Assembly (NCBI GenBank): GCA_021776115.1
Contig: JAJFGN010000068.1
Location: 665 to 64,664, forward strand
Direction: 5' to 3'
DNA length: 64,000 bases
Source: Kiloniellaceae bacterium
Lineage (GTDB): Bacteria > Pseudomonadota > Alphaproteobacteria > Kiloniellales > J153
Every line of letters begins with the position of its first letter. Within the stretch, counting starts at the first letter, position 1. This document shows, piece by piece, positions 9,463 through 35,373 of this stretch. The notes under the pieces are model-generated. The model ran no database searches and was not told the DNA's origin. It saw only the letters and a list, made by a program, of their open reading frames with translations. The position numbers and the translations under genes are program-made.

Positions 9463-9512
9463 GGCCGATTATTACTTGTCCGCATGTCAGGAAAATCGCT
9501 CAGCGCACTCGA

Positions 9513-10316
9513 TCAGCCATGCCTAGCGGGTTTGCGGGCGACGGCCATGATCATATGGCTGAATACCATGCCAGGCAGAATAGGGGCCAGCAGGGCACTG
9601 AGGGCCCGGGTGACGGCCCACTTGTACGACAAGCCGAATTCGTGATGTAGGCACCGTAGGACTCCCTGGCGCTTGTGAATCGGCTTAATATTCAAGACTT
9701 GAAATCCGCCAAGTCGCAAGTAATCCCTAAGTTCCCCACGGGTCAAGCGCCACTGATAAAATCGCATCGGCTGATGATTTGGTTCCGTCTCGCGCTTTGC
9801 ATCGAAAGCCTTGATCAGAGACTGGCGCAGGTTGTCGAAGGGCACGGTGATGAAAAGATAGCCGCCCGGTTTCAAGACGCGGAACGCTTCGGCCACACAG
9901 CGATCCAGACCTTCCTCGAAGTGCTCGAAGGTGCCCCAAGAGAAATAGCCGTCAAAGCTTTCTGCCGGCAGTCCCGTGTCGCGGATGTCGCCAACGGCGA
10001 AGTCCGAATCTGGAAACAGTGATTTTAACTTTGCCACGGTGTCACGGCTGATGTCGAGTCCAAGGGTGGGCATCTCGTTTCGGCTCAAATAGAGTGTCCA
10101 ATCCCCTAAGCCACAGCCCCCGTCCAGAAGATATGCGCCTTTGGGAAGCTGGTCCAAATAGGGGCGCATGATCCGGAATTCGGGCTTCCTCGGAATCTGA
10201 CCTACGGCGCCCTTGGGGCCACCTTCCTGTTGCCAGACTCGGGTCCAGTACGCCTCGACGAACGCGGTTTCATCCCCGCCGCCCGATACCGTATCGACTG
10301 TGAAATCCTTTCGCAT
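9513..10316 (-). CDS. Class I SAM-dependent methyltransferase
   Basis: YLLDGGCGLGDWTLYL, FSWGTFEHF and LKPGGYLFITVP. Confidence 0.8.
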   Translation of the reverse strand: MRKDFTVDTVSGGGDETAFVEAYWTRVWQQEGGPKGAVGQIPRKPEFRIMRPYLDQLPKGAYLLDGGCGLGDWTLYLSRNEMPTLGLDISRDTVAKLKSLFPDSDFAVGDIRDTGLPAESFDGYFSWGTFEHFEEGLDRCVAEAFRVLKPGGYLFITVPFDNLRQSLIKAFDAKRETEPNHQPMRFYQWRLTRGELRDYLRLGGFQVLNIKPIHKRQGVLRCLHHEFGLSYKWAVTRALSALLAPILPGMVFSHMIMAVARKPARHG

Positions 10317-10372
10317 TCAAATAGTCCTGGCGCTCTTTCAGGTTATCTTTAAGGGATGCGTATCTCTGTCTA

Positions 10373-11398
10373 TCAAAGCGGAATCTGGTTGCGGATATAC
10401 AGCCAGGGCGAGCGAAATACCTTGCGTCGTTTGCCATATTCTTCGCGGCGGGAAAAGAGAGTTTCGACAAGATTGAGCCAGTTACCAGTCATGCGCTCAG
10501 CCGTATTGGGGTAGGAGCCCATCCGCTCAGCGAGCGCATTGTAGTCCGACGTTAGTTGATTCAGCGCGGCCTCGAACGTTTCAGGACTAAACGGAACGCC
10601 AAAGCCGGCGCAGTACTCAGGCAGACAGCCGCTTTCACGGTAGAGAAGCGGCAGGCCGCACAGGGCTCCTTCATTCTGGTGATTCCCGCCTGGCTCATTT
10701 ATGGATGCCGTAATGTAGGCGTGATGGCTACGCAGCTCGTCAGCCAAGGCCTCCCCGGTCAGAGGTTCGATGTGACAGGCATGGCGAAACCGGAAGCCCT
10801 TCGGAAGGTTGCCGACATAGGTAAAGCGGATACGGTTTCCCCAGGAATCACTAGCCAGCATGGCATCGAGACGCTCATAGATGTCGAAGCCCTTCAACCG
10901 GTTGCCCCCCCAGTGATGCGTGACCAGCTTCAGGGGGTCATTGCCATTCCATGGCGCGAACCCCTGGGCATTGAACGTCCTGGTATCGGCGCCGTTCAGA
11001 ATAACGCTGCTCTCGGCCGGCGGTGCCGATTGCCAGGCCGCCAATTCGCGCAACCACGATCCGACGAACACAGTGTGGTCGGCACAATAGTTGGCGCGTG
11101 TGAGAAGCCTATTCATGTGGCGAGTATTCTTACGCTCGTCGCATTCGTTGACACGGTGGATGGCGACGGCCTTAGGATTCCGAAATGCCAAATACCGAAG
11201 GATAGCGCCAGCGCCGAATCTGAAAATGGGTAGACGGGAACGGGGGTCCATGAGGAGAATGATATCAATATCGCCATCGGCCAGATCGAACACGGCCGAA
11301 TGGCCCGCTTGCTCTAGCGCTTCCGTTAGGGCGGAAACGAAGCGGTTTCCACCACCCCAGGGGCCGGACTGAAGTCGGTAGCCGATGGCGACTTTCAT
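10373..11398 (-). CDS. Putative glycosyltransferase (GT-B-like)
   Basis: MKVAIGYRLQSGPWGGGNRFVSAL N-terminus and INEPGGNHQNEGALCGLPLLY, which resembles the GT-B donor-binding motif. Start moved to ATG 11398, just after the upstream stop at 11400-11402. Confidence 0.5.
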   Translation of the reverse strand: MKVAIGYRLQSGPWGGGNRFVSALTEALEQAGHSAVFDLADGDIDIILLMDPRSRLPIFRFGAGAILRYLAFRNPKAVAIHRVNECDERKNTRHMNRLLTRANYCADHTVFVGSWLRELAAWQSAPPAESSVILNGADTRTFNAQGFAPWNGNDPLKLVTHHWGGNRLKGFDIYERLDAMLASDSWGNRIRFTYVGNLPKGFRFRHACHIEPLTGEALADELRSHHAYITASINEPGGNHQNEGALCGLPLLYRESGCLPEYCAGFGVPFSPETFEAALNQLTSDYNALAERMGSYPNTAERMTGNWLNLVETLFSRREEYGKRRKVFRSPWLYIRNQIPL

Positions 11399-11399
11399 A

Positions 11400-12206
11400 C
11401 TACGGGGTTTCGCCATTCACGGGAATATTCCCAGGGGATTTCCTCAACACAAGAGTCTGCGTCGTGCAGCATCGCCACAGACCGAGCTTCTGCCGAAAAG
11501 GGTTGCGTCCTAGGAGCGTAGCGATATTGACCAAAAGTCTGGCGACCCGGCTGACCCACCGCTGATCGATGGTCACCAGTTCGTACCAAAAGATCGGATG
11601 CGTCTCGTACACATGGATGGGTGAGCCGAATATCTTGCTGCAAAGCTCGACGAACTCGCCCGTAAACCACTCTTGCACATGCATTGGATCCACGGGCTGG
11701 TGCGAAAACCGAATCGGAGTCGTGATTACGAGATGTCCCCCGGGGAGCAGGACCCGGCGAATCTCGGAGAGCATCGTGAGCGGCTCCTGAACGTGCTCGA
11801 TGACATCCGAGCAGACAACTGCGTCATAGCCGTTCTCCGGCTCGCCCGTGCCGTATCCGGCTACGCATTTGAATTGCCCTTCCAGGCCGCGCAGAGCAAA
11901 GGCCTTGCGCGCCAAGTCGATCGCCAACGAACTGGCATCCACCCCGGTGACGGATCGTCCCAGGTCTTGTCGAATCAGTCCGCTGAGTGCGCCGTCGCCG
12001 CACCCGACATCGAGAATCCGTGCCTCCGGCGCAAGAGCGAGATCCTTCAGGCAGTCCAGAGCCAGATCGTAACGGGCTCTGGTGTAGGCGTTCATTCGCA
12101 TCAGCCCGCCGGAATAGTCGGCCCAATGATAGGCACCCTTTTTTTCGTATTTCTCGAACTGGATCTCGCTCACCAGCCGCGGTCCCAAACTATGCATGGC
12201 GGACAC
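11400..12206 (-). CDS. Class I SAM-dependent methyltransferase
   Basis: RILDVGCGDGALSGLI, DAVVCSDVIEHV and LLPGGHLVITTP. Confidence 0.8.
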   Translation of the reverse strand: MSAMHSLGPRLVSEIQFEKYEKKGAYHWADYSGGLMRMNAYTRARYDLALDCLKDLALAPEARILDVGCGDGALSGLIRQDLGRSVTGVDASSLAIDLARKAFALRGLEGQFKCVAGYGTGEPENGYDAVVCSDVIEHVQEPLTMLSEIRRVLLPGGHLVITTPIRFSHQPVDPMHVQEWFTGEFVELCSKIFGSPIHVYETHPIFWYELVTIDQRWVSRVARLLVNIATLLGRNPFRQKLGLWRCCTTQTLVLRKSPGNIPVNGETP

Positions 12207-12332
12207 CGATAGAGTGTTTTATCGAGAGGCATCGCTTCGCCGCGCTTCGGTTCGAAGAATAGTGCTGCGCGTGCACACAAACCTCGCACCGACGAATTCC
12301 ACCCGACAAGACTGGCGACAAGGAAAGCCATG

Positions 12333-13445
12333 CTAGGAGCTGGCGGGATTGGCGTTGAGGAGATGTGCGACCCTTGTGGACAAGGCGTCGATGTTAAGTT
12401 CCCTTTCCACCGTTTGCCGTGCCTTGGCACCAAGTCGCGCACACGCCGCCGGGTCGCCGAGTGATCGCTCGATGGATGCCTGCAGGCCCGCTATGGACCC
12501 GGGCGGTACGAGCAGGCAATTCTCGTCATCGCGGATCAAGTCACGATCCCATATCCCCTTGATGTCACTGATGATAACCGCCTTGCCGCAGGCCATGGCC
12601 TGCAGGCAGGCACTTTGCCCGGACGGTTGAATCGTATCCAGGATTGGCAGCACGACAAACAATGCGCCTTGCATCAGGATCCGGATCCGCTCGTCGCTCA
12701 ACATTTGCCGATGCCAGTCGCCGGAAATGACAGCGACGTTGGTGGGAATGGATGCTGCCGGTATCCGCCGTTTGGTGACGATTGTGAGCCGGGGATAGTC
12801 CTGCTTCCAGGCGCGCAAGAGGGTCGCATAGTCTCGGTGCCGATCGTTGCCGATGCTCAGCACGTAAGGGCCGTCTGGCGCTGTCTCAGGTGCCGTGCCG
12901 GTGGGCTGCCAGAATCGCGTATCGACGCCAAACGGCAGATAGTCGATCGCTACGCCGGGCAGCCGATCCTTGAGGTATGCCACTTCCGGTCGACCGAGCG
13001 ACAGAACGGGCACATGACGGAACACGGTACGATACATCAGAAGGATGCGCTTCGGGGTCGCGAAGTCAACCAACCCCATGGCGACAAAGATCAAGCGTGG
13101 CCTGCACAGGCCGAGGCGTTTGAGCACGGCAAGGGCGATTCCGAAGGCATTCGTGGTGACAAAGATCGCATCGTATCTTTGCAGAAGTGCCCGTGCGTCG
13201 CGCCAAGCCAGTCGGTACGTTGCCCACAAGGGAAGGCCCAGGACGGCCCAGGCTAGGTGATTAACGGCACGCCATAGCCGAGAGGGGCTCTTGTCCAGAC
13301 CGAAATCGTTGTCTTGCCATAGATCGATATCGAGGCCCGACTCGCGCAGTTGCGGATAGCCGAAAAAGAATTCCGTCGGCCCGTCCGCGGTGTCATTCCC
13401 AAGCCGTTCTTTGCGGCCGGATTTGAAAAGGTAGGCAAACGTCAT
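12333..13445 (-). CDS. Glycosyltransferase, GT-B fold (GT4-like)
   Basis: QPSGQSACLQAMACGKAVIISDIKGIWD in the C-terminal half. Confidence 0.7.
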   Translation of the reverse strand: MTFAYLFKSGRKERLGNDTADGPTEFFFGYPQLRESGLDIDLWQDNDFGLDKSPSRLWRAVNHLAWAVLGLPLWATYRLAWRDARALLQRYDAIFVTTNAFGIALAVLKRLGLCRPRLIFVAMGLVDFATPKRILLMYRTVFRHVPVLSLGRPEVAYLKDRLPGVAIDYLPFGVDTRFWQPTGTAPETAPDGPYVLSIGNDRHRDYATLLRAWKQDYPRLTIVTKRRIPAASIPTNVAVISGDWHRQMLSDERIRILMQGALFVVLPILDTIQPSGQSACLQAMACGKAVIISDIKGIWDRDLIRDDENCLLVPPGSIAGLQASIERSLGDPAACARLGAKARQTVERELNIDALSTRVAHLLNANPASS

Positions 13446-13511
13446 GACCGGCTATACGGGTATCCGGCCGCGGCCATTTTTGAGCACCAAATTGCCGGTC
13501 TCGAAGGCGCA

Positions 13512-14096
13512 CTACCGCCGCGCCGCTGCCGCACAACGCGCCTCCACCTTCTCGCAGATGTAGTGATAGAGATTGATATGAACTTCTTGAATGCGCGGCG
13601 TTTGGCGCGACGGCACGGCGAGTAGGACGTGGCACAGCGGCGCCATGGCGCCGCCGCCCTCGCCGGTCAAACCGATGACGGTCATGCCCATATCGCGGGC
13701 GCGATGACAGGCTGCGACCACGTTGGCGGAATTTCCGCTAGTGCTGATGGCAAAGAGGACGCCTCCCGCCTCCCCATAGGCCTCAACCTGCCGGGCGAAG
13801 ACGGTTTCATATTGGTAGTCGTTGCTCCATGCCGTCAAAATGGCTGTGTTCGACCCGAGGTCGATGACCTTGAGGCCCGGCCGCTCCACCAAGAATCGCG
13901 CCACAAGCTCGCCGGCGATATGCATGGCATCCGTCGCCGACCCGCCATTGCCGCAGACAAGCACCGGCAAGCGGCGGTCAAGCGCCGGAGCCATGGCTTC
14001 GATAGCAGCCTCGACGCGTGCATCCAGCTCAGCCGACCGAGTCTTCTCCAGTAGCGTGGCGGACTGAGCGAGATAGTCGGAAAAACTTTCAGCCAT
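13512..14096 (-). CDS. SIS-domain sugar-phosphate isomerase, GmhA (sedoheptulose-7-P isomerase)-like
   Basis: PVLVCGNGGSATDAMHIAGELV and FAISTSGNSANV. Start moved to ATG 14096 (MAESFSDYL), giving about 194 aa, the typical GmhA size. Confidence 0.7.
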   Translation of the reverse strand: MAESFSDYLAQSATLLEKTRSAELDARVEAAIEAMAPALDRRLPVLVCGNGGSATDAMHIAGELVARFLVERPGLKVIDLGSNTAILTAWSNDYQYETVFARQVEAYGEAGGVLFAISTSGNSANVVAACHRARDMGMTVIGLTGEGGGAMAPLCHVLLAVPSRQTPRIQEVHINLYHYICEKVEARCAAAARR

Positions 14097-14107
14097 GGCT
14101 ATCGCCC

Positions 14108-15574
14108 CTAGTCTTGATGGGCGCATGCCGAGGCGCGCCCTAATGAAAAGCCGGAATCCGGAACCGGCTGTTCAAATGGCGCCCGTAACGATGCGCGCGC
14201 CCCTCGGGATGGTGGGGCGAGGCTCTCGACGAAATCGCACAGCCGTTCCGAATATGGTCGATCAAACGGCTCAACGAAAAAGCGACTGACTTCCTTTAGC
14301 CGCTTCGAAATCGAACCGTTACCCACATTCGACATAAGTTCGCGAAGAGTGGGGACAAAATCATCGCTGCCGTTGGCTTTCAAGAATTCTGGCATCTGGT
14401 ACATGTCTTCAAAATGAATCAGAGACGCCGCCCGTTGAAAATGGTCGGCGGACTCTTCTTCTGTTGGCAAGAAGCAAGCGACCGGCTTTCCGTGCAAGGC
14501 ACCCTCGATGATGATTGTTGACAACGGGGAGACCAAAGCGTCGATGGAACAAAGCAGGTCATGCGTCCGCTCATAGGGCGGCAGAGATTTTCCCTTGTGG
14601 CCCGCCTTCACCGCCTCGAGATAGCCACGCATGCTATTTTCCAGGCGAACATGGCGCCATGGATGATCGAGCAGACACTCTCCTCCCTTTCCGCCACCAC
14701 CCCATGGATGGGGGCGGTAGACAACCGCCATACTGGGGAGGCGGCCAGTGTCGATGGCGTCTTCGATCGTACAAAGGTGGCTGAACTCATTGCTCTCCTT
14801 GCTCGAACCGGCATACATAAGAACTGGAAGAGCGGGATCAATGTTGTGTTCGCGGCAGAATTCGGTTCGGGAAATGGTGGGTGGATTGCGAAAAAGGTCG
14901 AACTGCGCCGCACCAAACTTGATAGCCCGATCCGTGCTTATGCCAACGTATTCGACGGCATGCCGCTTGGTTTGCTCACCCCACACGAGCAGCCAGTCCG
15001 GGACTCCGACCATAGCTCGCTTTGTGCTCGGATTGTCCCAAGAATTCATAATCGTAACGAATGGAATGGTACGTTTGGACGCCGCTTCCATCAGATCGTT
15101 GATATAGACCCCCTCAAGCACGCACGGATGGATGAGCGCATCGGGTCGATATTTGTCAAGCAGCGCGGCCAAATCGTGATAGGGCCGTTCGGCAAGCTTA
15201 CGTTCAAGGAAATGTCGAACTAGAGTAAACACGCCGGGCAAACTGGCCACTCGGTACAGTGCTGCTGCCTTTGCCCCAATGGCGCCGGTATAAATCCTGC
15301 GAACGACCTTCCATTGCCGACCGGGCCGCCACCTGAGCTGGTCGATCTGGAACAGCGGCTTCCACAGGCGCTGGCGACCCTGATGGACCGTGAGGTGGGT
15401 ATAGTCCGCGCCACAGAGATCCAGTTGGCCGATCTTGACATCGCCCATCCGCTTGTATCCGGGCTCGGGGAACACAAACGTCACGTCGTGCTTGTTGATG
15501 AGATCGGCGAACACCAGGCTATGGAGGAAATGGCGGGCGACCACATCTACCTCAATGAAAATCAGGATCTTCAA
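14108..15574 (-). CDS. GT-B-like protein with HP motif; candidate CMP-ulosonate transferase
   Basis: VVYRPHPWGG followed about 60 aa later by SPLSTIIIEGALHGKPV. Start moved to TTG 15574, which forms a TTGA overlap with the upstream stop (15571-15573) and gives N-terminus (M)KILIFIEVD. Function is inferred, not recognised. Confidence 0.4.
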   Translation of the reverse strand: MKILIFIEVDVVARHFLHSLVFADLINKHDVTFVFPEPGYKRMGDVKIGQLDLCGADYTHLTVHQGRQRLWKPLFQIDQLRWRPGRQWKVVRRIYTGAIGAKAAALYRVASLPGVFTLVRHFLERKLAERPYHDLAALLDKYRPDALIHPCVLEGVYINDLMEAASKRTIPFVTIMNSWDNPSTKRAMVGVPDWLLVWGEQTKRHAVEYVGISTDRAIKFGAAQFDLFRNPPTISRTEFCREHNIDPALPVLMYAGSSKESNEFSHLCTIEDAIDTGRLPSMAVVYRPHPWGGGGKGGECLLDHPWRHVRLENSMRGYLEAVKAGHKGKSLPPYERTHDLLCSIDALVSPLSTIIIEGALHGKPVACFLPTEEESADHFQRAASLIHFEDMYQMPEFLKANGSDDFVPTLRELMSNVGNGSISKRLKEVSRFFVEPFDRPYSERLCDFVESLAPPSRGARASLRAPFEQPVPDSGFSLGRASACAHQD

Positions 15575-16299
15575 TTGTGGTCTCCACTCCGCATTCTTTG
15601 TTGGCGCGAAAGAATGAAATCCACCAGACTCAGATCCCATTCAGTATCGATGCTGACAAAATTCCCCTCCAGAACCAGCGCGCTCGTGCGACGCCCCTTG
15701 ATTGTTTTCTGTTCGAGAATGCATTCGCGAGTCATTGCGTAACAAATGCCGTTTCGGTGATACACCGGCGTTAATTGCTGGCGCGCTATGATATTTGCTC
15801 CCGCCGGGTCGTAGTATTCAAGCTTGCCATCGGCCACGGTCAGTTGCTTGAGTGGGTGTCCTTTCGAATCGGTTTCTGACACGCTCCATACGGCGTCCCA
15901 ATTTCCGTTGATGAGCATTTCGATGCACGCCGTCACATGGTCGGCTCGGCGCAAAGGCGAAGTGGGTTGCAGCAGGACGATGACGTCATATGTAGTGTCA
16001 TCGATGCGCTCCATCTCGATCAGCGTATGGGTCAGCACGTCGATATCGCCGATGCGGTCGCCGGATATTTCCGGAGGACGACGGAAGGGCGCGGCAAGAC
16101 CAGACTCTTCGGCGACACGCGCGATTTCCTCGTGGTCGGTCGAGACCACTGCCTGATCGATTATGGGAATCTGACGTATGAGGCACCCGACCCGCGCCAC
16201 CATCGGCATCCCGCAGACCGGTCGCAGGTTTTTCAAGGGGATCCCTTTGCTGCCACCACGCGCCGGCACCACGGCGAGGACACGCTTGCTTCCGATCAT
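15571..16299 (-). CDS. Acylneuraminate cytidylyltransferase family (CMP-ulosonic acid synthetase) #1
   Basis: VLAVVPARGGSKGIPLKNLRPVCGMPMVA and LLQPTSPLR. ATGA overlap at 16296-16299. Confidence 0.85.
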   Translation of the reverse strand: MIGSKRVLAVVPARGGSKGIPLKNLRPVCGMPMVARVGCLIRQIPIIDQAVVSTDHEEIARVAEESGLAAPFRRPPEISGDRIGDIDVLTHTLIEMERIDDTTYDVIVLLQPTSPLRRADHVTACIEMLINGNWDAVWSVSETDSKGHPLKQLTVADGKLEYYDPAGANIIARQQLTPVYHRNGICYAMTRECILEQKTIKGRRTSALVLEGNFVSIDTEWDLSLVDFILSRQQRMRSGDHN

Positions 16300-16976
16300 G
16301 TGCGGCTCTTGGCTTTCATGAACTTGGGCATCTGTCCTTCGCGATACCTCGAAATCTTCTCGATCGTTGCGGGAAGTCGCTTCAAGTCCTTTAGGATAGG
16401 AACTGGGCTGGCAATCCCGTCCGGGCAGTCAAATACCGGTACGAAATGACAGCCAATCTGATCGGCCGCCGCATAGTCGTCAGCGCCGTCGCCGACAACG
16501 ACGAGTTCCAGAGGCGGTATGCCTAAAAGGTTCTGTACACGCAGCAGGTTCTCGACTTTAGTGGCCGGGCCGCCGAAGATCCCGGCTAGTAACTGGCCGA
16601 TTTTGCGCGTCTGGACGATGGGCCGAAGCTCGGATTCTGGCGTTGCGGAATTGATGAAGAGCCGGCATTGCTGCGCGTGCAGCGCCTCCATCGCGCTTTC
16701 GGCTCCCGGCATATCGGGGCAAGCGGTGATGAGGGCCCTGCATCGATCGCTGTACTGCTGAGCCAGATTCTCATGCAACCCGGAAGCAAGGCCGGCCATC
16801 CTAGAGAATTGCTCGAACACGGCATAGCGGTCGCCGCGGTCGGGAGCGGAGAGGACTCGTTCCATGATATCCCGGCCATCCGGAATGGCGTCGACGACAG
16901 CGAAAAAGCTGTCCCGTTTGATGTGGTTTGAGTCAACTAAGGTGCCATCGAAGTCAAACACGACGCAGCGGATCAT
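16296..16976 (-). CDS. HAD-superfamily hydrolase (phosphatase candidate)
   Basis: MIRCVVFDFDGTLVDSN (DxDGT motif I) and VVVGDGADD. Start moved from 17114 to ATG 16976 (ATGA overlap with the upstream stop). Confidence 0.75.
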   Translation of the reverse strand: MIRCVVFDFDGTLVDSNHIKRDSFFAVVDAIPDGRDIMERVLSAPDRGDRYAVFEQFSRMAGLASGLHENLAQQYSDRCRALITACPDMPGAESAMEALHAQQCRLFINSATPESELRPIVQTRKIGQLLAGIFGGPATKVENLLRVQNLLGIPPLELVVVGDGADDYAAADQIGCHFVPVFDCPDGIASPVPILKDLKRLPATIEKISRYREGQMPKFMKAKSRT

Positions 16977-17845
16977 CGGGGCATTCCAGTGACGACGGCG
17001 ATAACCGCATCGCTGTGCCCTGCGGCTTCTAGGCTCTGCATATAGCCGAAATCGACCGGGGCAAAGATCCGCGTGTACTCTGCGTTGCCGCCGGGTTTTC
17101 CACACTGTAGCCAATTGAGATGGTTTTCCAAGCCATACCGCTGGTGTGTCATCATGGCTTCGATCCTAAAACCGTGCGAACGGAGCAATCGCTCCAGCGA
17201 AGCTTTCGAGTAGTAGTAGGGGTGCTGCTTCTGAAAGCAGTAGTCGGCATACGCCGGCACCTCATAGAGGCCAAGCAAAGGGTCGTCCAGAGAAGGCACT
17301 TCCATCACTAGATGTCCGTCCGGTGCCAGCAATGACGCACAAACGGAAAGAAAGGAAGCCGGCTCTACGATGTGCTCCAAGACATGGAAAAAGCAGATAA
17401 GGTCCCAACTCCCTACTGGCGCTTGCGAAAGGTTTTCATAGTGAGTCAACCCAGCGATTTGCTCGCGCAGCGACCGCCTTGTCGTATCCGGTTCGACGCA
17501 GGCTAAATCAAGGTGGGGATGCCGTTCGCGGATTAGCGCGAGAAAGCCACCATCGCCGGCGCCAATCTCGAGCACGCGGCCAACCGATGAGAACCATGCA
17601 GCCAGCTTTTCGTGCCGGCGCTCGTAAGTACCGATCTTCTTCTTGTATTCCTGGAGACCAAGCGCTGCGGCCCGGGGCTTGTACCGGCTGTAATCCGTTT
17701 CCGGAATGGGATGGAGGACGGCAAAGTCACCCGCACGATTGACGTATACTTCGGTGTCGGCATCATCGTAGATGCCACGGCGTAGCCGCACGAACTCCTC
17801 GTCACAGAACGGAGCCGGCAGGATGGATTCATCGAGTCCAGTCAT
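16973..17845 (-). CDS. Class I SAM-dependent methyltransferase
   Basis: RVLEIGAGDGGFLALI and DLICFFHVLEHI. Start moved from 18106 to ATG 17845 (ATGA overlap with the upstream stop). Confidence 0.75.
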   Translation of the reverse strand: MTGLDESILPAPFCDEEFVRLRRGIYDDADTEVYVNRAGDFAVLHPIPETDYSRYKPRAAALGLQEYKKKIGTYERRHEKLAAWFSSVGRVLEIGAGDGGFLALIRERHPHLDLACVEPDTTRRSLREQIAGLTHYENLSQAPVGSWDLICFFHVLEHIVEPASFLSVCASLLAPDGHLVMEVPSLDDPLLGLYEVPAYADYCFQKQHPYYYSKASLERLLRSHGFRIEAMMTHQRYGLENHLNWLQCGKPGGNAEYTRIFAPVDFGYMQSLEAAGHSDAVIAVVTGMPR

Positions 17846-19389
17846 GCCGTCGGCTTGCCTACCATGTCCGGCAACTGAAATCGCCCCCAGTGATCGACGA
17901 TGGTCTTGCGCTCCGCTCGGTCCAGCTTGTTGATCGTCGGGTCGCGATAGACCGAATCGTCGTTGAAATGCGTGGTGGAAACTTCCTCGAACACGCAACC
18001 GGATTCGCTCCAGAAGTGATGCCAGACGCCCGGCATGACAAGCTGCGTGTCGCCGGGTTGTAGGACCTTGTGACGGCCATCGAGATCGGTATGCAGCTCG
18101 CCCCACAGTATCTGAAAGGTTTCTTCCTTGCGCCTGTGGTAGTGGGAGGGATGGGCCTGATGGGGCAATTGAACCAGGATCTTCTTGCAGTACTCTCGGT
18201 TGATGCAGTTGATGATTACGACGCCCGTTTCCCTGAAATTGCGAACGCCGTAGTGATGGGAGTATTCGACTTCGAATTCACTACTAAGCGGGATCCGCGC
18301 CAGGTTTAGGAGCGCCTTGACTTCATGAACTGCATGCTTGAGCACCTGGACATCGGGCGTGGGCGGAATTTCCACGGCCTCTACCATGACCGGGCCGTCG
18401 GCCGGAATATCGACAAGCGCCGGGATGTCGGTTTTCCATTGACCGCTGGATAACTGTCCCACGGTGAACGGCATCGCGAAGTAAACGTGGTCGCGTGTGA
18501 TGGTAGTGCCTTTTTCTATGGGCTCACGAGCGAAAACACCGCGCTGTAGGCCGGTGATGGCATCGCGTTCTTCTGGTGCCGGCGGCAGCCGGTCGTATGA
18601 CCCACACAGGACATGCGCCTTCTGCCATGCGCCAATCCACGCGTCGACTTGTCCGGGAGTGGAGGAATAGGCGTTGAGCGTGATCTTGTCCGTCGTCAGG
18701 CCGATGTGCCGCTCGAACATCTGTGCGCCTTTGGCAGTGGCAATCATCACCGGGCCGGTATCCGCCGGGTTCTCATGCGTGGACCACCCAATGGTGCAGT
18801 CCGGATAACGCTCTCGGAACGCTGTTACATTGCTGAGATTGCATTGCTTGTCCGGCGTCGGATAGATCGACACACAATGCATGATCGCGTGGTCGACCCC
18901 ACGATGATCGAAGAAGCTTTTCAGATCGTCGATCTGGTGTAATTCCAGTCCCCCCGTTGAGAAAATAACCGGTTTGCCCGTGACTGCGATCGCTTCGAGT
19001 AGAGGCCAGTCAATCGCCGAGCAACTGGCCACTTTGAGGACGTCAAAACCCATGTCGACGACGACATCGACGGAGTCTTCGTCAAACGGTGTACAGACAG
19101 CGACAAGTCCTTGCGCACGAACCTCGTTCAAAAGGGTCTGAAATGCGGCGCGATCGAGTTGCGTACCGAGAAACCGAGGAATGTGTTTGTTGGCGCTGCC
19201 GACCTTGTGGCTCGGGTGCACGAAGCTGTCCAGTTGGCGGAACTGGAATTTTATCGCGCCACGCACCTGTCGCACCTTTAAGACGGCGCCGTGTTGTCTG
19301 ATGATGTTCAGTCCGTGTTCGACATCGCCTTGGTGATTGTTAGCAAGGTCGAGGACGAATAGATCCTTGAAGTCGAAGCGCGATTCCAT
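17842..19389 (-). CDS. NeuB-family PEP-condensing ulosonic acid synthase fused to a C-terminal D-lyxose-isomerase-like cupin (no SAF domain)
   Basis: N-terminal half: FVLDLANNHQGD, AIKFQ, CTPFDEDSVDVVVDMGFDVLKVASCS, GKPVIFSTGG and MHCVSIYPTP (NeuB/PseI-like TIM barrel). C-terminal approx 130 aa: LPHQAHPSHYHRRKEETFQILWGEL...PGVWHHF (cupin metal-site pattern). Start taken at ATG 19389 (MESRFDFKDLFVLD). Confidence 0.7.
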   Translation of the reverse strand: MESRFDFKDLFVLDLANNHQGDVEHGLNIIRQHGAVLKVRQVRGAIKFQFRQLDSFVHPSHKVGSANKHIPRFLGTQLDRAAFQTLLNEVRAQGLVAVCTPFDEDSVDVVVDMGFDVLKVASCSAIDWPLLEAIAVTGKPVIFSTGGLELHQIDDLKSFFDHRGVDHAIMHCVSIYPTPDKQCNLSNVTAFRERYPDCTIGWSTHENPADTGPVMIATAKGAQMFERHIGLTTDKITLNAYSSTPGQVDAWIGAWQKAHVLCGSYDRLPPAPEERDAITGLQRGVFAREPIEKGTTITRDHVYFAMPFTVGQLSSGQWKTDIPALVDIPADGPVMVEAVEIPPTPDVQVLKHAVHEVKALLNLARIPLSSEFEVEYSHHYGVRNFRETGVVIINCINREYCKKILVQLPHQAHPSHYHRRKEETFQILWGELHTDLDGRHKVLQPGDTQLVMPGVWHHFWSESGCVFEEVSTTHFNDDSVYRDPTINKLDRAERKTIVDHWGRFQLPDMVGKPTA

Positions 19390-19417
19390 ATGGACGGCCC
19401 TTGTGCGTGACGATGGC

Positions 19418-20512
19418 TTACCGGGTGCTAAGCGCATCTGGGGTGTATCCCTTGGCATAGTCGATTCTTATCGACCGGCGCTCTTGGTGGGAAAGGTGTA
19501 TCGCCGCGACCACCAGCATAGTATCCAATCCGCGTTCAACACCGATGTGCGGAGGCAGGTTCTCCAAGGCCAGGGCATGTTCAATGTGCCGCAACTCCCG
19601 GATGAAGTCCTGTGGGCGAGTCTTTTCGATCAGTGTCGTGGATGATTCCGCGCCACCGACTTGATGGATGACCGCGTCGCACCCAGATTTGAAGCCGCAG
19701 TGCCACTCGGCAAAACCTTGATCGCCTTGGATGCGGGCCCATTTGCGAGGCGGTTGCGTGACCACATCCTGAACGATGCGCCCGGTCAGGCCGGATTGTG
19801 TCGTTACATTGGCAAGGCACAACCGATCGTAATCGACCGTTCCGTCTCGCACAAAGTCGAGTGTGGCAACAACATCGATAATTCTTCCGCCGCCGCACGC
19901 ATGGGCGAAATGCTGCCAAAGGTTAATGGCGTGGGAGTGCTCACCGCTGGCGCCGCCGCCGCGATTCGAATATCCAAGATACGAATCCTGCGGGCCATCG
20001 AGCCAGGGGTGAGCGTTGAATATTCCGCCCCAGTACTCACGGAACTCTACGTCAATGGTGGAGACCGTGCCGACAGCGCCTTCCGTCAGGATCGTGGAAG
20101 TTTGCTCCACAGCTTTGCCAACGACGTGATCGTACCCGGTGAATACGGCAACCCCAAGATCTCGGCTTAGATCATAGAGTTTCTGCGCGTCGGCCAAGTC
20201 TGGCGTGCACAGTGGCTTCTCGATCAGCACCGCCCTAGGTTTTTCCGCCAATGCGGCTAGGCCGAGGGGGATGTGGCTGTCCGGCGGCGTGCCGACGCAA
20301 ATCAGGTCATATTCTCCGGTCGGGGCTTTCGAGGCCTCGAACAGCCGAATGTCGTCATCCCACGCCGCATAGCGGTTTGGATAAATCTGGTTTCTCGTGC
20401 GCTCGAGGGCGGCAGTGTCCACATCGCACAGATCCACACTCCAGCCAAGCTGGCGTGCGGCGTTAGATAGATGATTGCCGATCGAGCCGGCGCCAATGAC
20501 TTTAACTCTCAT
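19418..20512 (-). CDS. Gfo/Idh/MocA-family NAD(P)-dependent sugar oxidoreductase
   Basis: MRVKVIGAGSIGNHL Rossmann N-terminus and the family-typical AVLIEKPLC (EKP) motif. Confidence 0.7.
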   Translation of the reverse strand: MRVKVIGAGSIGNHLSNAARQLGWSVDLCDVDTAALERTRNQIYPNRYAAWDDDIRLFEASKAPTGEYDLICVGTPPDSHIPLGLAALAEKPRAVLIEKPLCTPDLADAQKLYDLSRDLGVAVFTGYDHVVGKAVEQTSTILTEGAVGTVSTIDVEFREYWGGIFNAHPWLDGPQDSYLGYSNRGGGASGEHSHAINLWQHFAHACGGGRIIDVVATLDFVRDGTVDYDRLCLANVTTQSGLTGRIVQDVVTQPPRKWARIQGDQGFAEWHCGFKSGCDAVIHQVGGAESSTTLIEKTRPQDFIRELRHIEHALALENLPPHIGVERGLDTMLVVAAIHLSHQERRSIRIDYAKGYTPDALSTR

Positions 20513-20594: not shown

Positions 20595-21338
20595 TCAGCT
20601 GCTTTCCCAGAACGCCCGTGCTTTGCGCAGATCGTCCTCTGTACCAAACTCCAGCAGTGCACTAACCTCATGTACGTTGGTAGGCTCTTCTTTCATATAG
20701 CGGGTGACGATATCAGTCGTAATGTCGCCAAGTGTTCCCTTCCGCGCAAGTGAATACGCCAATTCCTTCAGTAACAGGGTATTGGAAAAGACGAAAAATC
20801 CAACCACGCCATTGTCTATCTGGGCAATAGGTTGTGGCGTTTCCAATGCGGTAATTTTTTGGGCGACACCGTTCTTCGTTTCGACTGAGTGGCGATAGGT
20901 TCCCAACACGCCTTTGGTCGCCAGTGTCGCAACGAATATTGAGCTGTCGGTGACTATAGGATTGCTCAACATGATCAGGTCGCAAAAAGAAACGACTGTT
21001 CCATAGCGACTGTCGATATGATCGAGAGCGTAAAGGAGAGAAAAAGCATTGTTGCGGATATCGTTTATGGATTCGCGAGAGAATTCAATCTTTTGATTTG
21101 GGTAGCGCCCGGCAATATAACTTTCCAACAAATCTCCATGCCATCCCGTTCCGATTACTATCTTATGTGATATCAGCAGGAATTTACTAATCAGGAGATC
21201 GATTGCGCGCTGCGAGCCAATCTTGGACAGGGCCTTCGGAATGTGTTCTGAGGCGCTCCCCATCCGGGTGCTCAAACCTCCCGCAAGGATGATGACATTG
21301 TAGCTCCGGCCTTTGTCGGAGATGAACTGACCAAGCAT
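20595..21338 (-). CDS. Sugar-phosphate nucleotidyltransferase (NTP_transferase fold)
   Basis: YNVIILAGGLSTRMGSASEHIPKALSKIG. The gene is markedly lower in G+C than its flanks. Confidence 0.7.
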   Translation of the reverse strand: MLGQFISDKGRSYNVIILAGGLSTRMGSASEHIPKALSKIGSQRAIDLLISKFLLISHKIVIGTGWHGDLLESYIAGRYPNQKIEFSRESINDIRNNAFSLLYALDHIDSRYGTVVSFCDLIMLSNPIVTDSSIFVATLATKGVLGTYRHSVETKNGVAQKITALETPQPIAQIDNGVVGFFVFSNTLLLKELAYSLARKGTLGDITTDIVTRYMKEEPTNVHEVSALLEFGTEDDLRKARAFWESS

Positions 21339-21347
21339 TTTATGTCC

Positions 21348-23063
21348 CTAATTCAGCAAATCTGAGTGCTTGCGAAGAAATGCTGCCGACACCAGGCCGG
21401 TTGAGCCATAGCCCACTTGGTATGGCGCAAACATGCTGTGAAACCGCCTCTGCAATTCCTCGTCCTCGCTGGTTTTCTGATAACGTCCGTCCAGTCGCTC
21501 GACCAGCTCACGGGTTGCGTCAATCAGATCTTCCGCGGTGTTATGAACCAGCCTAAAGCGGCCCCTCTCACAATCCTTAGAGAATGAGAAAAGATGATTG
21601 AAATAGAGCCATTCCGAGAAAGAGAGATATCGACCCTCATCTTGATCAAATGCCAATTTCGGCACAAAGATGCTCTGCGTTGTCTTGTTCGAAGAATATA
21701 TGGTGTTTCGGATAAGGAAGAGATCTGAAACTACGGTCGGTCGATCAAATGCGGCCGCCCCCGAAAACAGGCCAGTATCTCCCGCTAAGAGAAATCTGTA
21801 GCGCGAGAATAGATAGACGTCAAGTTCGTCGCTGCGCCCGGTTTGTGCGTAGTCAAACACCAATGGGTGGCAATCGCCAGGCAAGGGTTCGGTAACGCTC
21901 AAACCCATCCGTACGACTTGATAGCCTCGGTCGGCCCAGTAATGGGCGAAGCCTACGTACGGAAGGATCTGCGGGCAACGGTGCTCGGTATCGTCCCGCA
22001 CGCCCGCTGATGGGCCAGATCCCATCACCGTGCCGTAAAATTTATAGTAGGCCATGTCGCGCAAGCCGAACCCAATGATCGGTTTCTCTGGGTCAATGCC
22101 CATGTGAGCCAACTGCTTCTCCGCCGCGCGCGCGGCGCGATCCGGAAAGCAAAGAACCGGCGGGCCGCCCATATAGTCATCCTTGATGCGACGATAGTCC
22201 GTGCTGAGACTGAGATTGCGTCCGACCCGCTCAATAACGGAAAACCCGATGCGGATGAGCTTTCTTGATAATGTCCCGGTCGTTCTCACCAGGCGACAGT
22301 GTCTGGAATACAAACGCATCAACGTTTCGTTCGGGTAGCCGTCGAAATACAGAGCGATCAATAAGGGCGGTTTCTGGCCGCCAGCACTGTCCCGCAATCG
22401 CCGGAGCATGGGGTCGATGCGGTCTACGATGTCGGCCAGGCGGGTAAAGTTTCCCAACGACGCAACGCGAATATCGCGCCGCCTATATCGTAACCTCACC
22501 AAGGCGAGAAAGCAGATGGCGATAAGGTCGAATAAGCGGAAACAAATCTTAGATCCGATCATTCTTGCCCAGAGACGTGCACGGACACCCGCAGGCAGTC
22601 GTAGGTTTGCGCTGAACAAGCGGGTCAGAGGAAAGTGGCCAATCACCTTCAATGGCACCTTGGACAGGATCCCGACCGGATCGTCACGAATCACCGTTTC
22701 CGACAACAGCGTGCGAATATTGGTTTGGTCGATGGCGGTCCCATTAGAGATATCATCAAACGCAGCAATCAATTGTAGCATGGCGGGCGGATCGGGATCG
22801 GCGTCCAATATGTCGCGGACAGCCTGCAGGGCCTCTTTGGGTCGGCCCAGGGCCGCAAGAGTAAGGCACTGTTCCAACCGCCACGGATAAGTTGGGCTTG
22901 TAATTTTCTGGCAACGCTCCAGCGTTCGCAGTGATATGTCCGGCCGGCCAATCACCCTTAAATCACGCGCCGTAGCTATCAGTGACTTTGCGTCATGCAA
23001 ATTCTCCGCTCGCCGTGCCAGGCTCCGCGCATCGCGTACCTTCTCTGGTCTCAATTCAGTCAT
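21348..23063 (-). CDS. Hypothetical protein: N-terminal helical/TPR-like region plus a large C-terminal domain (possible glycosyltransferase)
   Basis: 571 aa. The N-terminal approx 110 aa is a helical repeat-like region (...LEQCLTLAALGRPKEALQAVRDILDADPDPPAMLQLIAAF...). The C-terminal part loosely recalls an uncharacterised putative-GT family. No catalytic motif was identified by eye. Confidence 0.3.
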   Translation of the reverse strand: MTELRPEKVRDARSLARRAENLHDAKSLIATARDLRVIGRPDISLRTLERCQKITSPTYPWRLEQCLTLAALGRPKEALQAVRDILDADPDPPAMLQLIAAFDDISNGTAIDQTNIRTLLSETVIRDDPVGILSKVPLKVIGHFPLTRLFSANLRLPAGVRARLWARMIGSKICFRLFDLIAICFLALVRLRYRRRDIRVASLGNFTRLADIVDRIDPMLRRLRDSAGGQKPPLLIALYFDGYPNETLMRLYSRHCRLVRTTGTLSRKLIRIGFSVIERVGRNLSLSTDYRRIKDDYMGGPPVLCFPDRAARAAEKQLAHMGIDPEKPIIGFGLRDMAYYKFYGTVMGSGPSAGVRDDTEHRCPQILPYVGFAHYWADRGYQVVRMGLSVTEPLPGDCHPLVFDYAQTGRSDELDVYLFSRYRFLLAGDTGLFSGAAAFDRPTVVSDLFLIRNTIYSSNKTTQSIFVPKLAFDQDEGRYLSFSEWLYFNHLFSFSKDCERGRFRLVHNTAEDLIDATRELVERLDGRYQKTSEDEELQRRFHSMFAPYQVGYGSTGLVSAAFLRKHSDLLN

Positions 23064-23107
23064 ACAGTGGGGCCAAGTGATTTTTCTGGGCTAGCTCTAC
23101 TGTGACG

Positions 23108-23992
23108 TCACAACTCCCGAGACGGAGTTGTCACGTGCAGAGGGATGAATAGCTCGGACGGAAAGGCAGGCTTGCTACATGGTATGCCAGTCAGCTCGTC
23201 AATAAAGACGATTTTACCTTCCGCCCACTCAAGCATCATGCGGTAATAGAGTGTCTCTGAGTACTCGGTGAGAAGGAACCGCGCTAAAATCTCGTTGAAG
23301 GTTCTTCTGCCAAGGTCCTTTTTCATCAACCGCTGAAAACGTACCGATGGATCAACACACAGGAAGAAGATATTTTTCAGCTGAGTAAGCAAGAAGGGCG
23401 GCCCAAAAATCGCACCCTCGTAGAGGAGGGTGCCGGTGGCTGGAATATCTAGATCGGCGCCATATTCCCCCGTCGACCGATCGTAGGGTCCGGATACTTT
23501 GATCGGTATTCCTGCTTGCAGGCTCTCCAGGTCGCTTAAGATAGCGCCCCAGTCCCACCAATTGAACTGGTTCGCCGCATCCTTATAACTGTCGACCGAA
23601 CGCATATGTTTTTGGGAGAGCAGCAACTTCCGCTCCTCGGAGGTGCCGATGAATGCATAATCGGCGGAATAGACGCTGCATCGTATTTCCCGAGCAAGCC
23701 AATTGGCAGTATAAGACTTACCAGCGCCGGCGGGGCCCGTAATTCCGTAGGTGCCTGGGCCGCTACCGAGAATTAAGTTTGTTATGACATCGCGGCGGGG
23801 GGCTGTTTCCGATGACAACGTCTTGTTTGCTCCTGTGCAAGAATTTACCGAGAGTAGGTTTCGGCACAAATTTCGCGGAAATTTGCCAAGAATAGAAATG
23901 CGAACAATGGCCTGTTCTTGAAAAAAACCACTCCAGCTAAGGCACGGAATGGTTCTCAGAATACATATCTTTGGTACCCAGTACCTCCGCAA
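23108..23992 (-). CDS. P-loop NTPase, uridine-kinase/PRK-like small-molecule kinase candidate
   Basis: Walker A YGITGPAGAGKSYTANWLA. The first approx 60 residues of the ORF look non-protein-like, so the true start is probably downstream of 23992. Confidence 0.45.
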   Translation of the reverse strand: MRRYWVPKICILRTIPCLSWSGFFQEQAIVRISILGKFPRNLCRNLLSVNSCTGANKTLSSETAPRRDVITNLILGSGPGTYGITGPAGAGKSYTANWLAREIRCSVYSADYAFIGTSEERKLLLSQKHMRSVDSYKDAANQFNWWDWGAILSDLESLQAGIPIKVSGPYDRSTGEYGADLDIPATGTLLYEGAIFGPPFLLTQLKNIFFLCVDPSVRFQRLMKKDLGRRTFNEILARFLLTEYSETLYYRMMLEWAEGKIVFIDELTGIPCSKPAFPSELFIPLHVTTPSREL

Positions 23993-25505: not shown

Positions 25506-25524
25506 AAGCCGGCATGTCGAGCGT

Positions 25525-26276: not shown

Positions 26277-28091
26277 CTAGCTGACCATCCGGCGATACAG
26301 GTCGGATTTCTCCAGGAGAAGGTTGTGGGAGCCTCGGGCGTCCAAGCGGCCATTTTCGAAAACCCATATCTCATCGCAACTTCGCACCAAGCCAAGGCGA
26401 TGAGAAACGATAATCGTTGTAACCACGCCATGCAATTTCTCGATAGACTCCGCGATTTCGCGTTCGACAAGGGTATCGAGCGAACTCGTCGCCTCATCGA
26501 GAATAAGAATGTCGGCGCCGCGATAGAGCGCGCGGGCAATGGCAACACGTTGCCGCTCTCCGCCCGAAAGCAAGTTGCCTTGCTCTCCCAGTCGGGAAGA
26601 AAGACCCTTCGGCAGCCGGTCGACAACCTGTTCTAAGCGTGCGAGCGCGATGGAGCGGGTGAGGCGTGCTTCATCGGCCTTTGCGGTCGACCGGAATACG
26701 ACGTTTTCCCGCATCGATGCATCGAGCAAGAATGGGCGTTGCGATACGTAGCTAAACCGCCTTCGCCAGGCTCGTTTGTTATCGGCCTCTAGGGGATGCC
26801 CATCAACACTAACGACACCTTCCGAGGGATCGAGTAATCCCGCGATCAAGTCTATGACCGTGCTCTTTCCCGCACCGGATGGCCCGACCGCGCCATAGGA
26901 TTTCCCCTGTTCAATATTCAAGGAAACAGCCGAAACGGCCCTACTTTTCGTATCGGTGTAACTGAGAGAGACTTTATCGAGGCGGATCTCTCGCCATGGC
27001 TGTGGTTTCAAATCATCTGGTGGTGCCAACTCCGTTTTTCCGGTGTCGGCGATCAACTGCTCCAGATCGTCGATGATCGGAAAGGAGCTCAAGAGGGTGG
27101 TTAGACCAGAAACAACAGTTGAGAAAATTGGCATGAGGCGAAGTGCCGAAAGCCCATACAGCAGCATAAGTCCGGCCAGTTCAACGCTTTGCGCCTCGAA
27201 TATGACAACAAATACGCTCATGCCGACGAGTGCCCCGTAAGCAAGTGACTCGAGAACGATACGCGGAATTTGTGCCCATTGTTGTCCTTTCGCATCCCCT
27301 TGCGCATAGAGCGTGACCTGATCGTCGAACAGCGAGCCAAAATGATCCTCAACGCCAGCCATCTTGACTTCCTTGATGCCGAGTACGGCTTCCATGCTAA
27401 CGCTGCTCGCCTTGAGTATCGCGCGCCTCTTTACCACGGCAAGACGCAGTAGTTCCGGTCGCACAAATACGAAAATCGCCATAGCAAAAACTGAAACGAA
27501 TGTTGCGACAATTAGACCCGATACTGGATTTGCCCAGATCAGTACGGCAACGACGATGCCTGCAAACATAAGATCGTTAAGCAATTGCAATAGTGACCGG
27601 ATGAACTGCCGCGACCATGTCGTAACAAATCCGAATAGAAGTTCCCGCAAGCGAGCGGAATTTTGCCGGACGAGCCAGGAGTACTGTGACGTGAGAATTT
27701 GCTTCATAAGAAGCGATTTGAGCCGCACCTCGCAGGCAGCAGAGAATCTTGACATCCACCCCGCATGGAGCCAACTGAAGACGGCCTTAAAGAGGATCAG
27801 AGCGGCAATACTACCCGCAAGCGTCAGTAGAACCTGTCTTCCCTCAATTTCACCGAATATGGGCTGCAGCCATGCCAGAATCTTACCGGTAGATGATCCT
27901 TTGGGATCCATCATAAACTGGACCAGGGGAACAATAGATACGAGCAAGGCGGTCTGCAGGAGGGCATGGAACATCGATGAGGCTACGAGGTAGAGCATTC
28001 GTTGGCGTTCTTGCACTGTCATCAGCGCGAGGCCTTTCTTAATTCCTCCGATCTGGCCACTGACACGCAGAAAAAAGTCACGCCGGTTCAT
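26277..28091 (-). CDS. ABC exporter, fused permease/ATPase half-transporter (MsbA/PglK-like)
   Basis: 604 aa. N-terminal approx 300 aa is hydrophobic. Walker A GPSGAGKST, signature LSGGERQRVAIARAL and Walker B ILILDEATSSLD. Confidence 0.9.
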   Translation of the reverse strand: MNRRDFFLRVSGQIGGIKKGLALMTVQERQRMLYLVASSMFHALLQTALLVSIVPLVQFMMDPKGSSTGKILAWLQPIFGEIEGRQVLLTLAGSIAALILFKAVFSWLHAGWMSRFSAACEVRLKSLLMKQILTSQYSWLVRQNSARLRELLFGFVTTWSRQFIRSLLQLLNDLMFAGIVVAVLIWANPVSGLIVATFVSVFAMAIFVFVRPELLRLAVVKRRAILKASSVSMEAVLGIKEVKMAGVEDHFGSLFDDQVTLYAQGDAKGQQWAQIPRIVLESLAYGALVGMSVFVVIFEAQSVELAGLMLLYGLSALRLMPIFSTVVSGLTTLLSSFPIIDDLEQLIADTGKTELAPPDDLKPQPWREIRLDKVSLSYTDTKSRAVSAVSLNIEQGKSYGAVGPSGAGKSTVIDLIAGLLDPSEGVVSVDGHPLEADNKRAWRRRFSYVSQRPFLLDASMRENVVFRSTAKADEARLTRSIALARLEQVVDRLPKGLSSRLGEQGNLLSGGERQRVAIARALYRGADILILDEATSSLDTLVEREIAESIEKLHGVVTTIIVSHRLGLVRSCDEIWVFENGRLDARGSHNLLLEKSDLYRRMVS

Positions 28092-35365: not shown

Positions 35366-35373
35366 TCCAGAGA

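Follow-up and report, generated by a model that had tools for sequence, protein, structure and literature searches.

The stretch of DNA analysed here (the window) comprises 64,000 nucleotides of a Kiloniellaceae bacterium (GCA_021776115.1, contig JAJFGN010000068.1, positions 665 to 64,664, forward strand). This work deals with a block of seven genes at 13512-20512, which the original prediction for this DNA had read as a self-contained cassette for an unassigned, probably non-aminated ulosonic acid activated with cytidine monophosphate (CMP), and above all with one of these genes, a fusion of a NeuB-type synthase with a cupin domain (NeuB::cupin). The seven close-packed open reading frames (ORFs), all on the minus strand, were found where they had been placed (Table 1), and so were their order, four 4-nt overlaps and two gaps of about 30 nt or less. 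The overlaps are ATGA at 17845-17842, 16976-16973 and 16299-16296 and TTGA at 15574-15571; 28 nt separate the stop codon of the Gfo/Idh/MocA oxidoreductase gene (Gfo, 19418) from the ATG of the fusion (19389), and 11 nt separate the stop codon of the putative transferase (14108) from the ATG of GmhA (14096). Alignments of homologues favour the shorter start codons (alignments A1 and A3 for the fusion and the transferase respectively). A scan for promoters and terminators gave no signal bounding the block or parting it from its neighbours, the signals being no more than in shuffled sequence. Annotation of the ORFs with profile models (Pfam, NCBIfam) and structures (Foldseek) upheld the enzyme classes that had been named.

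Table 1. Genes and domains of the block at 13512-20512 (first nine lines) and other features of the surrounding glycan island (bits, profile scores).
Feature	Position	Strand	Evidence
Gfo/Idh/MocA oxidoreductase	19418..20512	-	PF01408 51.8 bits, PF22725 31.9 bits
NeuB::cupin fusion, 515 aa	17842..19389	-	PF03102 128 bits; Cupin_2/Lyx_isomer 40.5/32.4 bits
Predicted NeuB-type synthase domain, residues 1-344 (TIM barrel and SAF-like subdomain)	18358..19389	-	PF03102
Predicted D-lyxose/D-mannose-isomerase-type cupin domain, residues about 345-515	17842..18357	-	PF07883 and PF07385 above threshold
Class I S-adenosylmethionine (SAM) methyltransferase	16973..17845	-	Methyltransf_23, 86 bits
HAD-IA hydrolase (predicted phosphatase)	16296..16976	-	PF00702 56 bits, PF13419; DFDGT and GDGADD motifs
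Predicted CMP-ulosonic acid synthetase (CMP-transferase), NeuA/PseF-like	15571..16299	-	PF02348 (CTP_transf_3) 75 bits; PseF model 123 bits
Putative ulosonic-acid transferase, 488 aa, GT-B-like, TTG start	14108..15574	-	weak BFO_1060/TIGR04396; RPHP motif
GmhA (SIS_2)	13512..14096	-	SIS_2 94 bits; GmhA model 186 bits
MobA-like nucleoside triphosphate (NTP) transferase	20595..21338	-	PF12804, PF00483; weak HddC/MurU similarity; directly upstream of Gfo
Fused ABC exporter/flippase, MsbA/PglK-like	26277..28091	-	PF00005, PF00664; MsbA and PglK models
Canonical pseudaminic acid (Pse) pathway	42493-51472	-	PseI model 515 bits
Third NeuB module	32640-37436	-	B12-binding radical SAM enzyme (methylase-like), PseF-like cytidylyltransferase, polysaccharide pyruvyl transferase, 291-aa NeuB

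The N-terminal domain of the fusion belongs to the NeuB family (PF03102, 128.4 bits against a cut-off of 22.1). Its closest solved relative is 3g8r (E=1e-85; roughly 50% identity over 335 residues), a 'probable spore coat polysaccharide biosynthesis protein E' of Chromobacterium violaceum (SpsE-like) that has no reported function and, unlike the protein described here, no cupin fusion. A Foldseek search with an AlphaFold model of the fusion (predicted local distance difference test, pLDDT, 80) matched the domain to 3g8r, 1xuu and 8h2c, with NeuB and PseI among the matches. Residues that bind phosphoenolpyruvate (PEP) and metal, the loss of which was considered, are retained in the alignment: both metal histidines are kept (H205 and H228, corresponding to H215 and H236 of Neisseria meningitidis NeuB), as are the PEP contacts K47, T100, K119, S122, S144 and S203 (K53, T110, K129, S132, S154 and S213 in N. 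meningitidis), and these residues are invariant among 14 homologues (alignment A1). The catalytic residues thus appear intact, in agreement with the predicted role as a PEP-condensing NeuB-type synthase. The domain did not reach the equivalog models for Neu5Ac synthase (TIGR03569, 118.9 vs. a cut-off of 399.65) or PseI (TIGR03586, 113.8 vs. 340.25), unlike the PseI of the same island, which scores 515 bits on the PseI model. Moreover, the positions of the N. meningitidis aldose site E134, N184 and D247 are occupied by S, S and N; these changes are family-specific, and substitutions including S124 and N239 (motifs KIASCS and GINNYS) are common to the domain and 3g8r. By sequence, the domain would be a separate clade of the NeuB family.

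The C-terminal cupin domain had been noted before, but a role as aldose-ketose isomerase had been overlooked. It scores 32.4 bits on the D-lyxose isomerase family PF07385 (cut-off 20.8) and does not reach the NCBIfam D-lyxose isomerase equivalog (23 vs. 350). phmmer aligned the whole 170-residue domain with the isomerases 7nzo (Thermofilum) and 2y0o (Bacillus subtilis), with a further match to 3kmh, and the motifs PxHxH..K.ETF..WGE and, at the C-terminus, H.F...E.S...DP align between the cupin and 7nzo/2y0o. Among the top Foldseek hits the only matches of this domain were to the Thermofilum isomerase (7nzo/7nzp, over 169 columns). Residues H416, H418, K421, E423 and H457 are invariant in alignment A1. 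Judged by family model, alignment and fold, the cupin appears to be a complete domain of the D-lyxose/D-mannose isomerase type, with the metal and catalytic motif HxH..K.E...H intact, rather than a generic cupin. The predicted aldose-ketose isomerase of the pathway would therefore be fused to the synthase. Known D-lyxose/D-mannose isomerases, which interconvert fructose/mannose and xylulose/lyxose, have the whole-domain fold and this motif in common with the cupin; however, they are stand-alone, catabolic enzymes of free sugars, whereas the cupin makes up the C-terminal end of a biosynthetic synthase and shares only ~23% identity with them. The original prediction had left the aldose open between mannose, giving a Kdn-like acid, and a heptose; the isomerase type of the cupin strengthens the first of these branches and weakens the second.

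A database search with the fusion gave more than 4,600 matches, of which the 120 best (60-90% identical) were examined: all 120 have the NeuB::cupin architecture and none bears a specific name. In a scan of one genome per species, a relative is encoded in 356 of the 377 stretches that matched. The 80 best loci were taken with 10-kb flanks, and neighbours were counted by tblastn of the window proteins against these loci, the denominators being the loci with enough flank. Carriers among the 80 loci include the alphaproteobacterial Thalassospira, Magnetovibrio, Niveispirillum, Kiloniella, Rhodoplanes and Devosia, 20 loci of Nitrospirota, and members of the Geobacteraceae (Desulfobacterota), Cyanobacteria, Chloroflexaceae (Chloroflexota), Verrucomicrobiae, Spirochaetales, Elusimicrobia and Myxococcota. 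The nearest locus (L001, 90% identity) belongs to a Kiloniellaceae metagenome-assembled genome (MAG).

Gfo lies upstream of the fusion in 73 of 73 loci and directly adjacent to it in 68 of these, in several phyla, a recurrence far beyond chance. The CMP-transferase was present within 10 kb in 47 of 51 neighbourhoods (55-70% identity) and the HAD hydrolase in 40 of 51. A methyltransferase of the same subfamily was near the core in 32 of 63 loci, in variable position, and the putative transferase or a TIGR04396 relative in 35 of 51; GmhA was found in a single one of the 51 testable neighbourhoods. When all ORFs of the loci were clustered independently, the neighbours ranked in the same order. 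These counts make the conserved unit smaller than seven genes: it consists of Gfo, NeuB::cupin and the CMP-transferase, usually with the HAD hydrolase, while the methyltransferase and the transferase come as accessories that vary with the lineage. The cassette is self-contained only in the biosynthetic sense and for its core of four genes, which recurs in many environmental bacteria.

The enzymes accompanying the fusion were analysed individually. The motifs GxGxxG and EKP of Gfo, a predicted NAD(P)-dependent sugar oxidoreductase, are invariant in alignments A2 and A4, and its AlphaFold model (pLDDT 88) resembles enzymes that oxidise secondary hydroxyls of rings (Foldseek matches to scyllo-inositol, levoglucosan and UDP-GlcNAcA 3-dehydrogenases, DgpA and anhydrofructose reductase). 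YjhC, whose action on sialic acid derivatives passes through a keto intermediate (PMC7535918, PMC7315737), ranked 15 in this search at 15% identity. YjhC and NanOx belong to the same superfamily, share the fold and show that a hydroxyl of a nonulosonic acid can be oxidised with NAD; however, the likeness is structural only, and their role is catabolic or in salvage, whereas that of Gfo in the module would be biosynthetic. The HAD hydrolase has the nucleophile motif DxDGT and the motif GDxxxD (DFDGT and GDGADD here), matches IA/PGP models and has the sugar-phosphate phosphatase TM_1254 as its nearest structure. The CMP-transferase scores 123 bits on the PseF model and 28-51 bits on the KdsB models (cut-offs 155-281), and its best matches in the PDB are CMP-Neu5Ac synthetases; by sequence it would be nearer to NeuA/PseF than to KdsB. 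The methyltransferase is probably an accessory that O-methylates the acid.

The putative transferase has no Pfam match and lies below the cut-offs of NF046086 BFO_1060 (41.3 bits vs. 200) and TIGR04396 (16.7 vs. 125). Its R287-P-H-P290, W198-G199 and E357 are nevertheless invariant with the TIGR04396 members of Nitrospira (alignment A3), where the counterpart is a true member of that family (345 bits). A profile search against the PDB gave marginal matches only (TarL 0.005, KpsC 0.14), and the GT-B fold class is a tentative assignment. Genes for nonulosonic acid transferases characteristically adjoin the synthesis module (PMC4487303), a rule that the position of this gene fits. For the HAD hydrolase, the CMP-transferase and this neighbouring HP-motif protein, domain and motif evidence agrees with what had been claimed.

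Two known routes resemble the module. The Kdn/Neu5Ac-9-phosphate route (vertebrate NANS-NANP-CMAS; Kdn-9-phosphate synthase, phosphatase and CMP-Kdn synthetase of Bacteroides thetaiotaomicron) also uses a NeuB-family synthase, a HAD phosphatase and a CTP_transf_3 enzyme, a gene set that is co-located in the module, and like the module it needs no nucleotide-sugar dehydratase or aminotransferase. Unlike that route, the module has its synthase fused to an isomerase-type cupin, an obligate Gfo and frequently a methyltransferase. The Kdo pathway (KdsD-KdsA-KdsC-KdsB) follows the same logic, from isomerase through PEP condensation and phosphatase to CMP activation, but the Pfam and NCBIfam models revealed no KdsA-, KdsC-, KdsB- or KdsD-type enzyme in the block. 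Each step is taken by a non-orthologous enzyme: the cupin in place of the SIS-CBS protein KdsD, NeuB in place of KdsA, HAD-IA in place of the KdsC type and a NeuA/PseF-like enzyme in place of KdsB.

The curated family models, the names of database sequences and the literature that were searched held no described counterpart of the synthase-isomerase fusion or of its obligate Gfo partner. Nothing relevant was found in the literature searched on the fusion, the combination of Gfo, NeuB and HAD, methylated Kdn clusters or the glycans of Niveispirillum irakense. The pathway had been called unassigned, and we found no curated equivalog model or paper that gives it a sugar. A 5-O-methyl-Kdn polysaccharide is produced by Sinorhizobium fredii. 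The fusion had no tblastn match among 72,556 plasmids, a set that should cover rhizobial megaplasmids but not the S. fredii chromosome.

Taking these observations together, we consider it fairly probable that the module makes a CMP-activated 3-deoxy-2-ulosonic acid from a central ketose and supplies the enzyme for its transfer. On the observed domains, motifs and synteny, substrates and order of steps can be proposed. The fused cupin would isomerise a central ketose, most likely fructose or fructose-6-phosphate, to a manno/lyxo-configured aldose, which the NeuB domain would condense with PEP to a Kdn-like acid. The HAD-IA phosphatase would remove the phosphate, either from the ketose phosphate before condensation or from the ulosonate phosphate after it, as in vertebrate NANS/NANP. 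Gfo would oxidise or reduce a secondary hydroxyl of the acid; as Gfo is always present, the final acid is probably a keto or epimeric derivative and not plain Kdn. In roughly half of the lineages, this one among them, the acid would be O-methylated by the methyltransferase. The NeuA/PseF-like enzyme would make the CMP-sugar, and the RPHP-motif protein would pass the sugar on to a methylated glycan rich in 6-deoxyhexose, which the MsbA/PglK-like ABC protein would handle. Within this general model, a C9 non-aminated acid is a tentative choice of product, to which we give slightly less than even confidence. Pfam found no dehydratase, aminotransferase, N-acetyltransferase or 2-epimerase in 13512-20512, and within 10 kb of the fusion PseB-like genes occurred in 6 and aminotransferases in 10 of the 80 loci. 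This rarity of amino-sugar genes speaks against a dependence of the module on amino-sugar precursors, and a non-aminated Kdn-like acid, optionally O-methylated, is still the best guess.

Several observations weigh against this proposal. No orthologue of the module is tied to a sugar structure. Known D-lyxose isomerases use free sugars, yet the conserved phosphatase suggests phosphorylated intermediates, and the two are reconciled by assumption only; the phosphatase itself is absent from about a fifth of the neighbourhoods. Because three residues lining the N. meningitidis NeuB aldose site are changed, the aldose could differ from mannose. The structural neighbours of Gfo span many specificities, none of them standing out as close, and do not point to one position of oxidation. 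GmhA is packed closely behind the transferase in the operon, which leaves room for a role in this lineage. Finally, amino-sugar precursor genes could act in trans, with a Pse pathway 22 kb away in the same island.

This last point leads to an aminated nonulosonic acid, made from a 2,4-diamino-2,4,6-trideoxyhexose or a ManNAc-type sugar supplied in trans, with Gfo and the cupin as an epimerising pair that would yield a new stereoisomer of Pse, Leg or Neu. The complete Pse pathway of the window lies 22-31 kb upstream in the same orientation, the loci L013, L005, L050 and L054 carry a second NeuB/CMP-transferase pair or PseB/PseC-like genes nearby, and the best family match of the CMP-transferase is PseF. 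However, this Pse pathway has its own PseI and PseF, a dehydratase or aminotransferase is near the module in few loci, as counted above, and the NeuB domain falls far below the cut-offs of the NeuB and PseI equivalogs. The cupin, in its full-length similarity and its motif, resembles aldose-ketose isomerases of 2-hydroxy sugars. We therefore regard an aminated product as unlikely.

An acid with ten carbons was also weighed. In this scheme GmhA, or the cupin acting on sedoheptulose or its 7-phosphate, would feed D-glycero-D-manno-heptose(-7-phosphate) to NeuB, and the resulting 3-deoxy-dec-2-ulosonic acid would be processed by the HAD and CMP enzymes. GmhA has its zinc and catalytic motifs intact (DAxHIAGE and IQExH) and sits directly behind the transferase, with which it would be co-transcribed, and the stereochemistry of a mannose-type isomerase would let it accept a manno-configured heptose/sedoheptulose pair. 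The original prediction had seen in GmhA the isomerase of the pathway, in analogy to KdsD. No KdsD model is among its matches; it is 55% identical to 2xbl (Burkholderia pseudomallei GmhA), lies just below the cut-offs of TIGR00441 (185.8 vs. 209.45) and NF010546 (186.1 vs. 276), and is 60-68% identical to proteins of Azospirillum, Novispirillum and Falsiroseomonas that NCBI names GmhA. The role of pathway isomerase fails on the distribution of the gene, which is absent from 50 of the 51 neighbourhoods and whose homologues lie in unrelated contexts. In the closest relative (L001) the transferase abuts the following GT4 glycosyltransferase gene, with no GmhA at that junction; the single other locus that has GmhA (L080, a Devosia MAG) carries it 8 kb away from the synthase, flanked by a GMD-like and a GT4 gene. 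A 65%-identical homologue in Azospirillum rugosum belongs to a classical GDP-heptose cluster (GHMP kinase, NTP-transferase::HAD fusion and GMD-like enzymes), and an 86%-identical one is a stand-alone gene beside asmA. By homology and context the SIS protein would be an orthodox GmhA (sedoheptulose-7-phosphate isomerase), a local guest in the operon outside the conserved module; its plausible role is in a heptose branch of the same glycan. Elsewhere in Gram-negative genomes GmhA is usually a housekeeping gene, so that supply in trans would be compatible with its absence from the neighbourhoods. CMP-linked C10 ulosonic acids do exist in a member of the Rhodospirillales (preprint 10.64898/2026.04.20.719630), but those C10 acids, from Magnetospirillum, bear two N-acetyl groups (same preprint), which the module could not supply, and the carriers of the module include Chloroflexaceae and other lineages. 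A heptose-derived acid is therefore unlikely too.

Least probable of all is a C8 isomer of Kdo, in which the cupin would turn D-xylulose(-5-phosphate) into D-lyxose(-5-phosphate) for a 3-deoxy-octulosonic acid distinct from Kdo: by their entry names the closest characterised relatives of the cupin (7nzo, 2y0o, 3kmh) prefer D-lyxose/D-xylulose, and HAD would act on the 8-phosphate as in the Kdo route, but the CMP-transferase resembles NeuA/PseF far more than KdsB and, to our knowledge, the NeuB-family enzymes characterised so far make C9 acids.

Returning to a CMP-activated acid made from a central ketose, it is possible, though on balance doubtful, that the product is structurally new (not Kdn, Kdo, Neu, Pse or Leg), either a keto- or epi-Kdn formed through Gfo or a C10 acid from sedoheptulose or heptose. 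It would then be a surface determinant in hundreds of environmental species and might serve in Nitrospira as the head-group sugar of a sphingolipid, a bacterial analogue of gangliosides. Kdn-type acids are frequent in environmental bacteria, where homology searches for the pathways are hampered by incomplete databases (PMC8157484), and mass-spectrometric surveys of such bacteria have found Kdn/Neu-type and unassigned higher-carbon ulosonic acids (PMC8157484; preprint 10.64898/2026.04.20.719630). The module is a concrete and widespread candidate (356 of the matched stretches in the species-level genome collection, thousands of protein clusters), with carriers that span nitrifiers (Nitrospira), magnetotactic and marine Rhodospirillales, cyanobacteria and Chloroflexota. 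For direct assay, expression of a minimal set of four to five genes would suffice. Its outcome would widen the rules by which nonulosonic acid types are predicted from genomes, and could yield new CMP-sugars and transferases for glycoengineering.

The surroundings of the core vary between carriers. In Nitrospira sp. DJ (CP058931.1; locus L025, 1-14300) and in 17 other Nitrospira loci, five genes directly precede the core Gfo-NeuB::cupin-HAD-CMP-transferase: a fatty acyl-AMP ligase (794 bits), a short-chain dehydrogenase/reductase, a serine palmitoyltransferase (627 bits, above cut-off), an 811-aa protein without family match and a TIGR04396 protein. This gene context suggests a sphingolipid that bears the ulosonic acid. 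In L001 the methyltransferase lies between Gfo and NeuB, and NeuB::cupin is separated from HAD by two inserted ORFs (518 and 530 aa, no NCBIfam match; 11945-15182 of that locus).

The block is not isolated but part of a 49-kb island (51472 to 2496) that also houses the complete Pse pathway and a third pair of NeuB and CMP-transferase. The genes of the island run in one direction, the sole exception on the plus strand being an FkbM-type methyltransferase (24009-24848). About ten SAM methyltransferases (including FkbM and TylF types), Gmd, a Gmd paralogue and GT2/GT4 genes occupy 2496-12206 and 24009-30174. The Gmd paralogue (7623-8618; 303 bits, below the Gmd cut-off) is Rmd- or heptose-dehydratase-like. 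The methyltransferases and Gmd genes point to a heavily O-methylated 6-deoxyhexose glycan. An MsbA/PglK-like ABC protein is present within 10 kb of the module in 27 other loci.

Upstream of Gfo, the minus strand of 20595-23992 encodes the MobA-like NTP-transferase, a TIGR04372 glycosyltransferase with tetratricopeptide repeats and a 294-aa protein without family match. The first two recur upstream of Gfo in Magnetovibrio and Devosia (L039, L040, L080), with the 294-aa protein farther upstream in both; the copies of the NTP-transferase in the same position are 62-72% identical, making it a sub-lineage-specific neighbour. GmhA, the weakly HddC-like NTP-transferase, a histidine phosphatase and a GMD-like gene were considered as a complete GDP-(6-deoxy)heptose pathway, which stays a suggestion because the window has no GHMP (heptose) kinase.

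The Pse pathway comprises PseB-like and PseC-like genes, a WbuX amidotransferase with HisH and HisF homologues, PseF, a methyltransferase, a PseG::GNAT fusion and PseI; the WbuX/HisH/HisF set is acetamidino-forming. The NeuB of the third module has no SAF domain and scores 224 bits on the NeuB model, below the cut-off. A C-methylating radical SAM enzyme in that module could give a 'C10' nonulosonic acid like the reported, unassigned ones of Magnetospirillum. Between two NeuB genes, three consecutive large ORFs without Pfam match (521, 592 and 600 aa) fill the minus strand of 37483-42518, and a few other loci have weak homologues of them close to the module.

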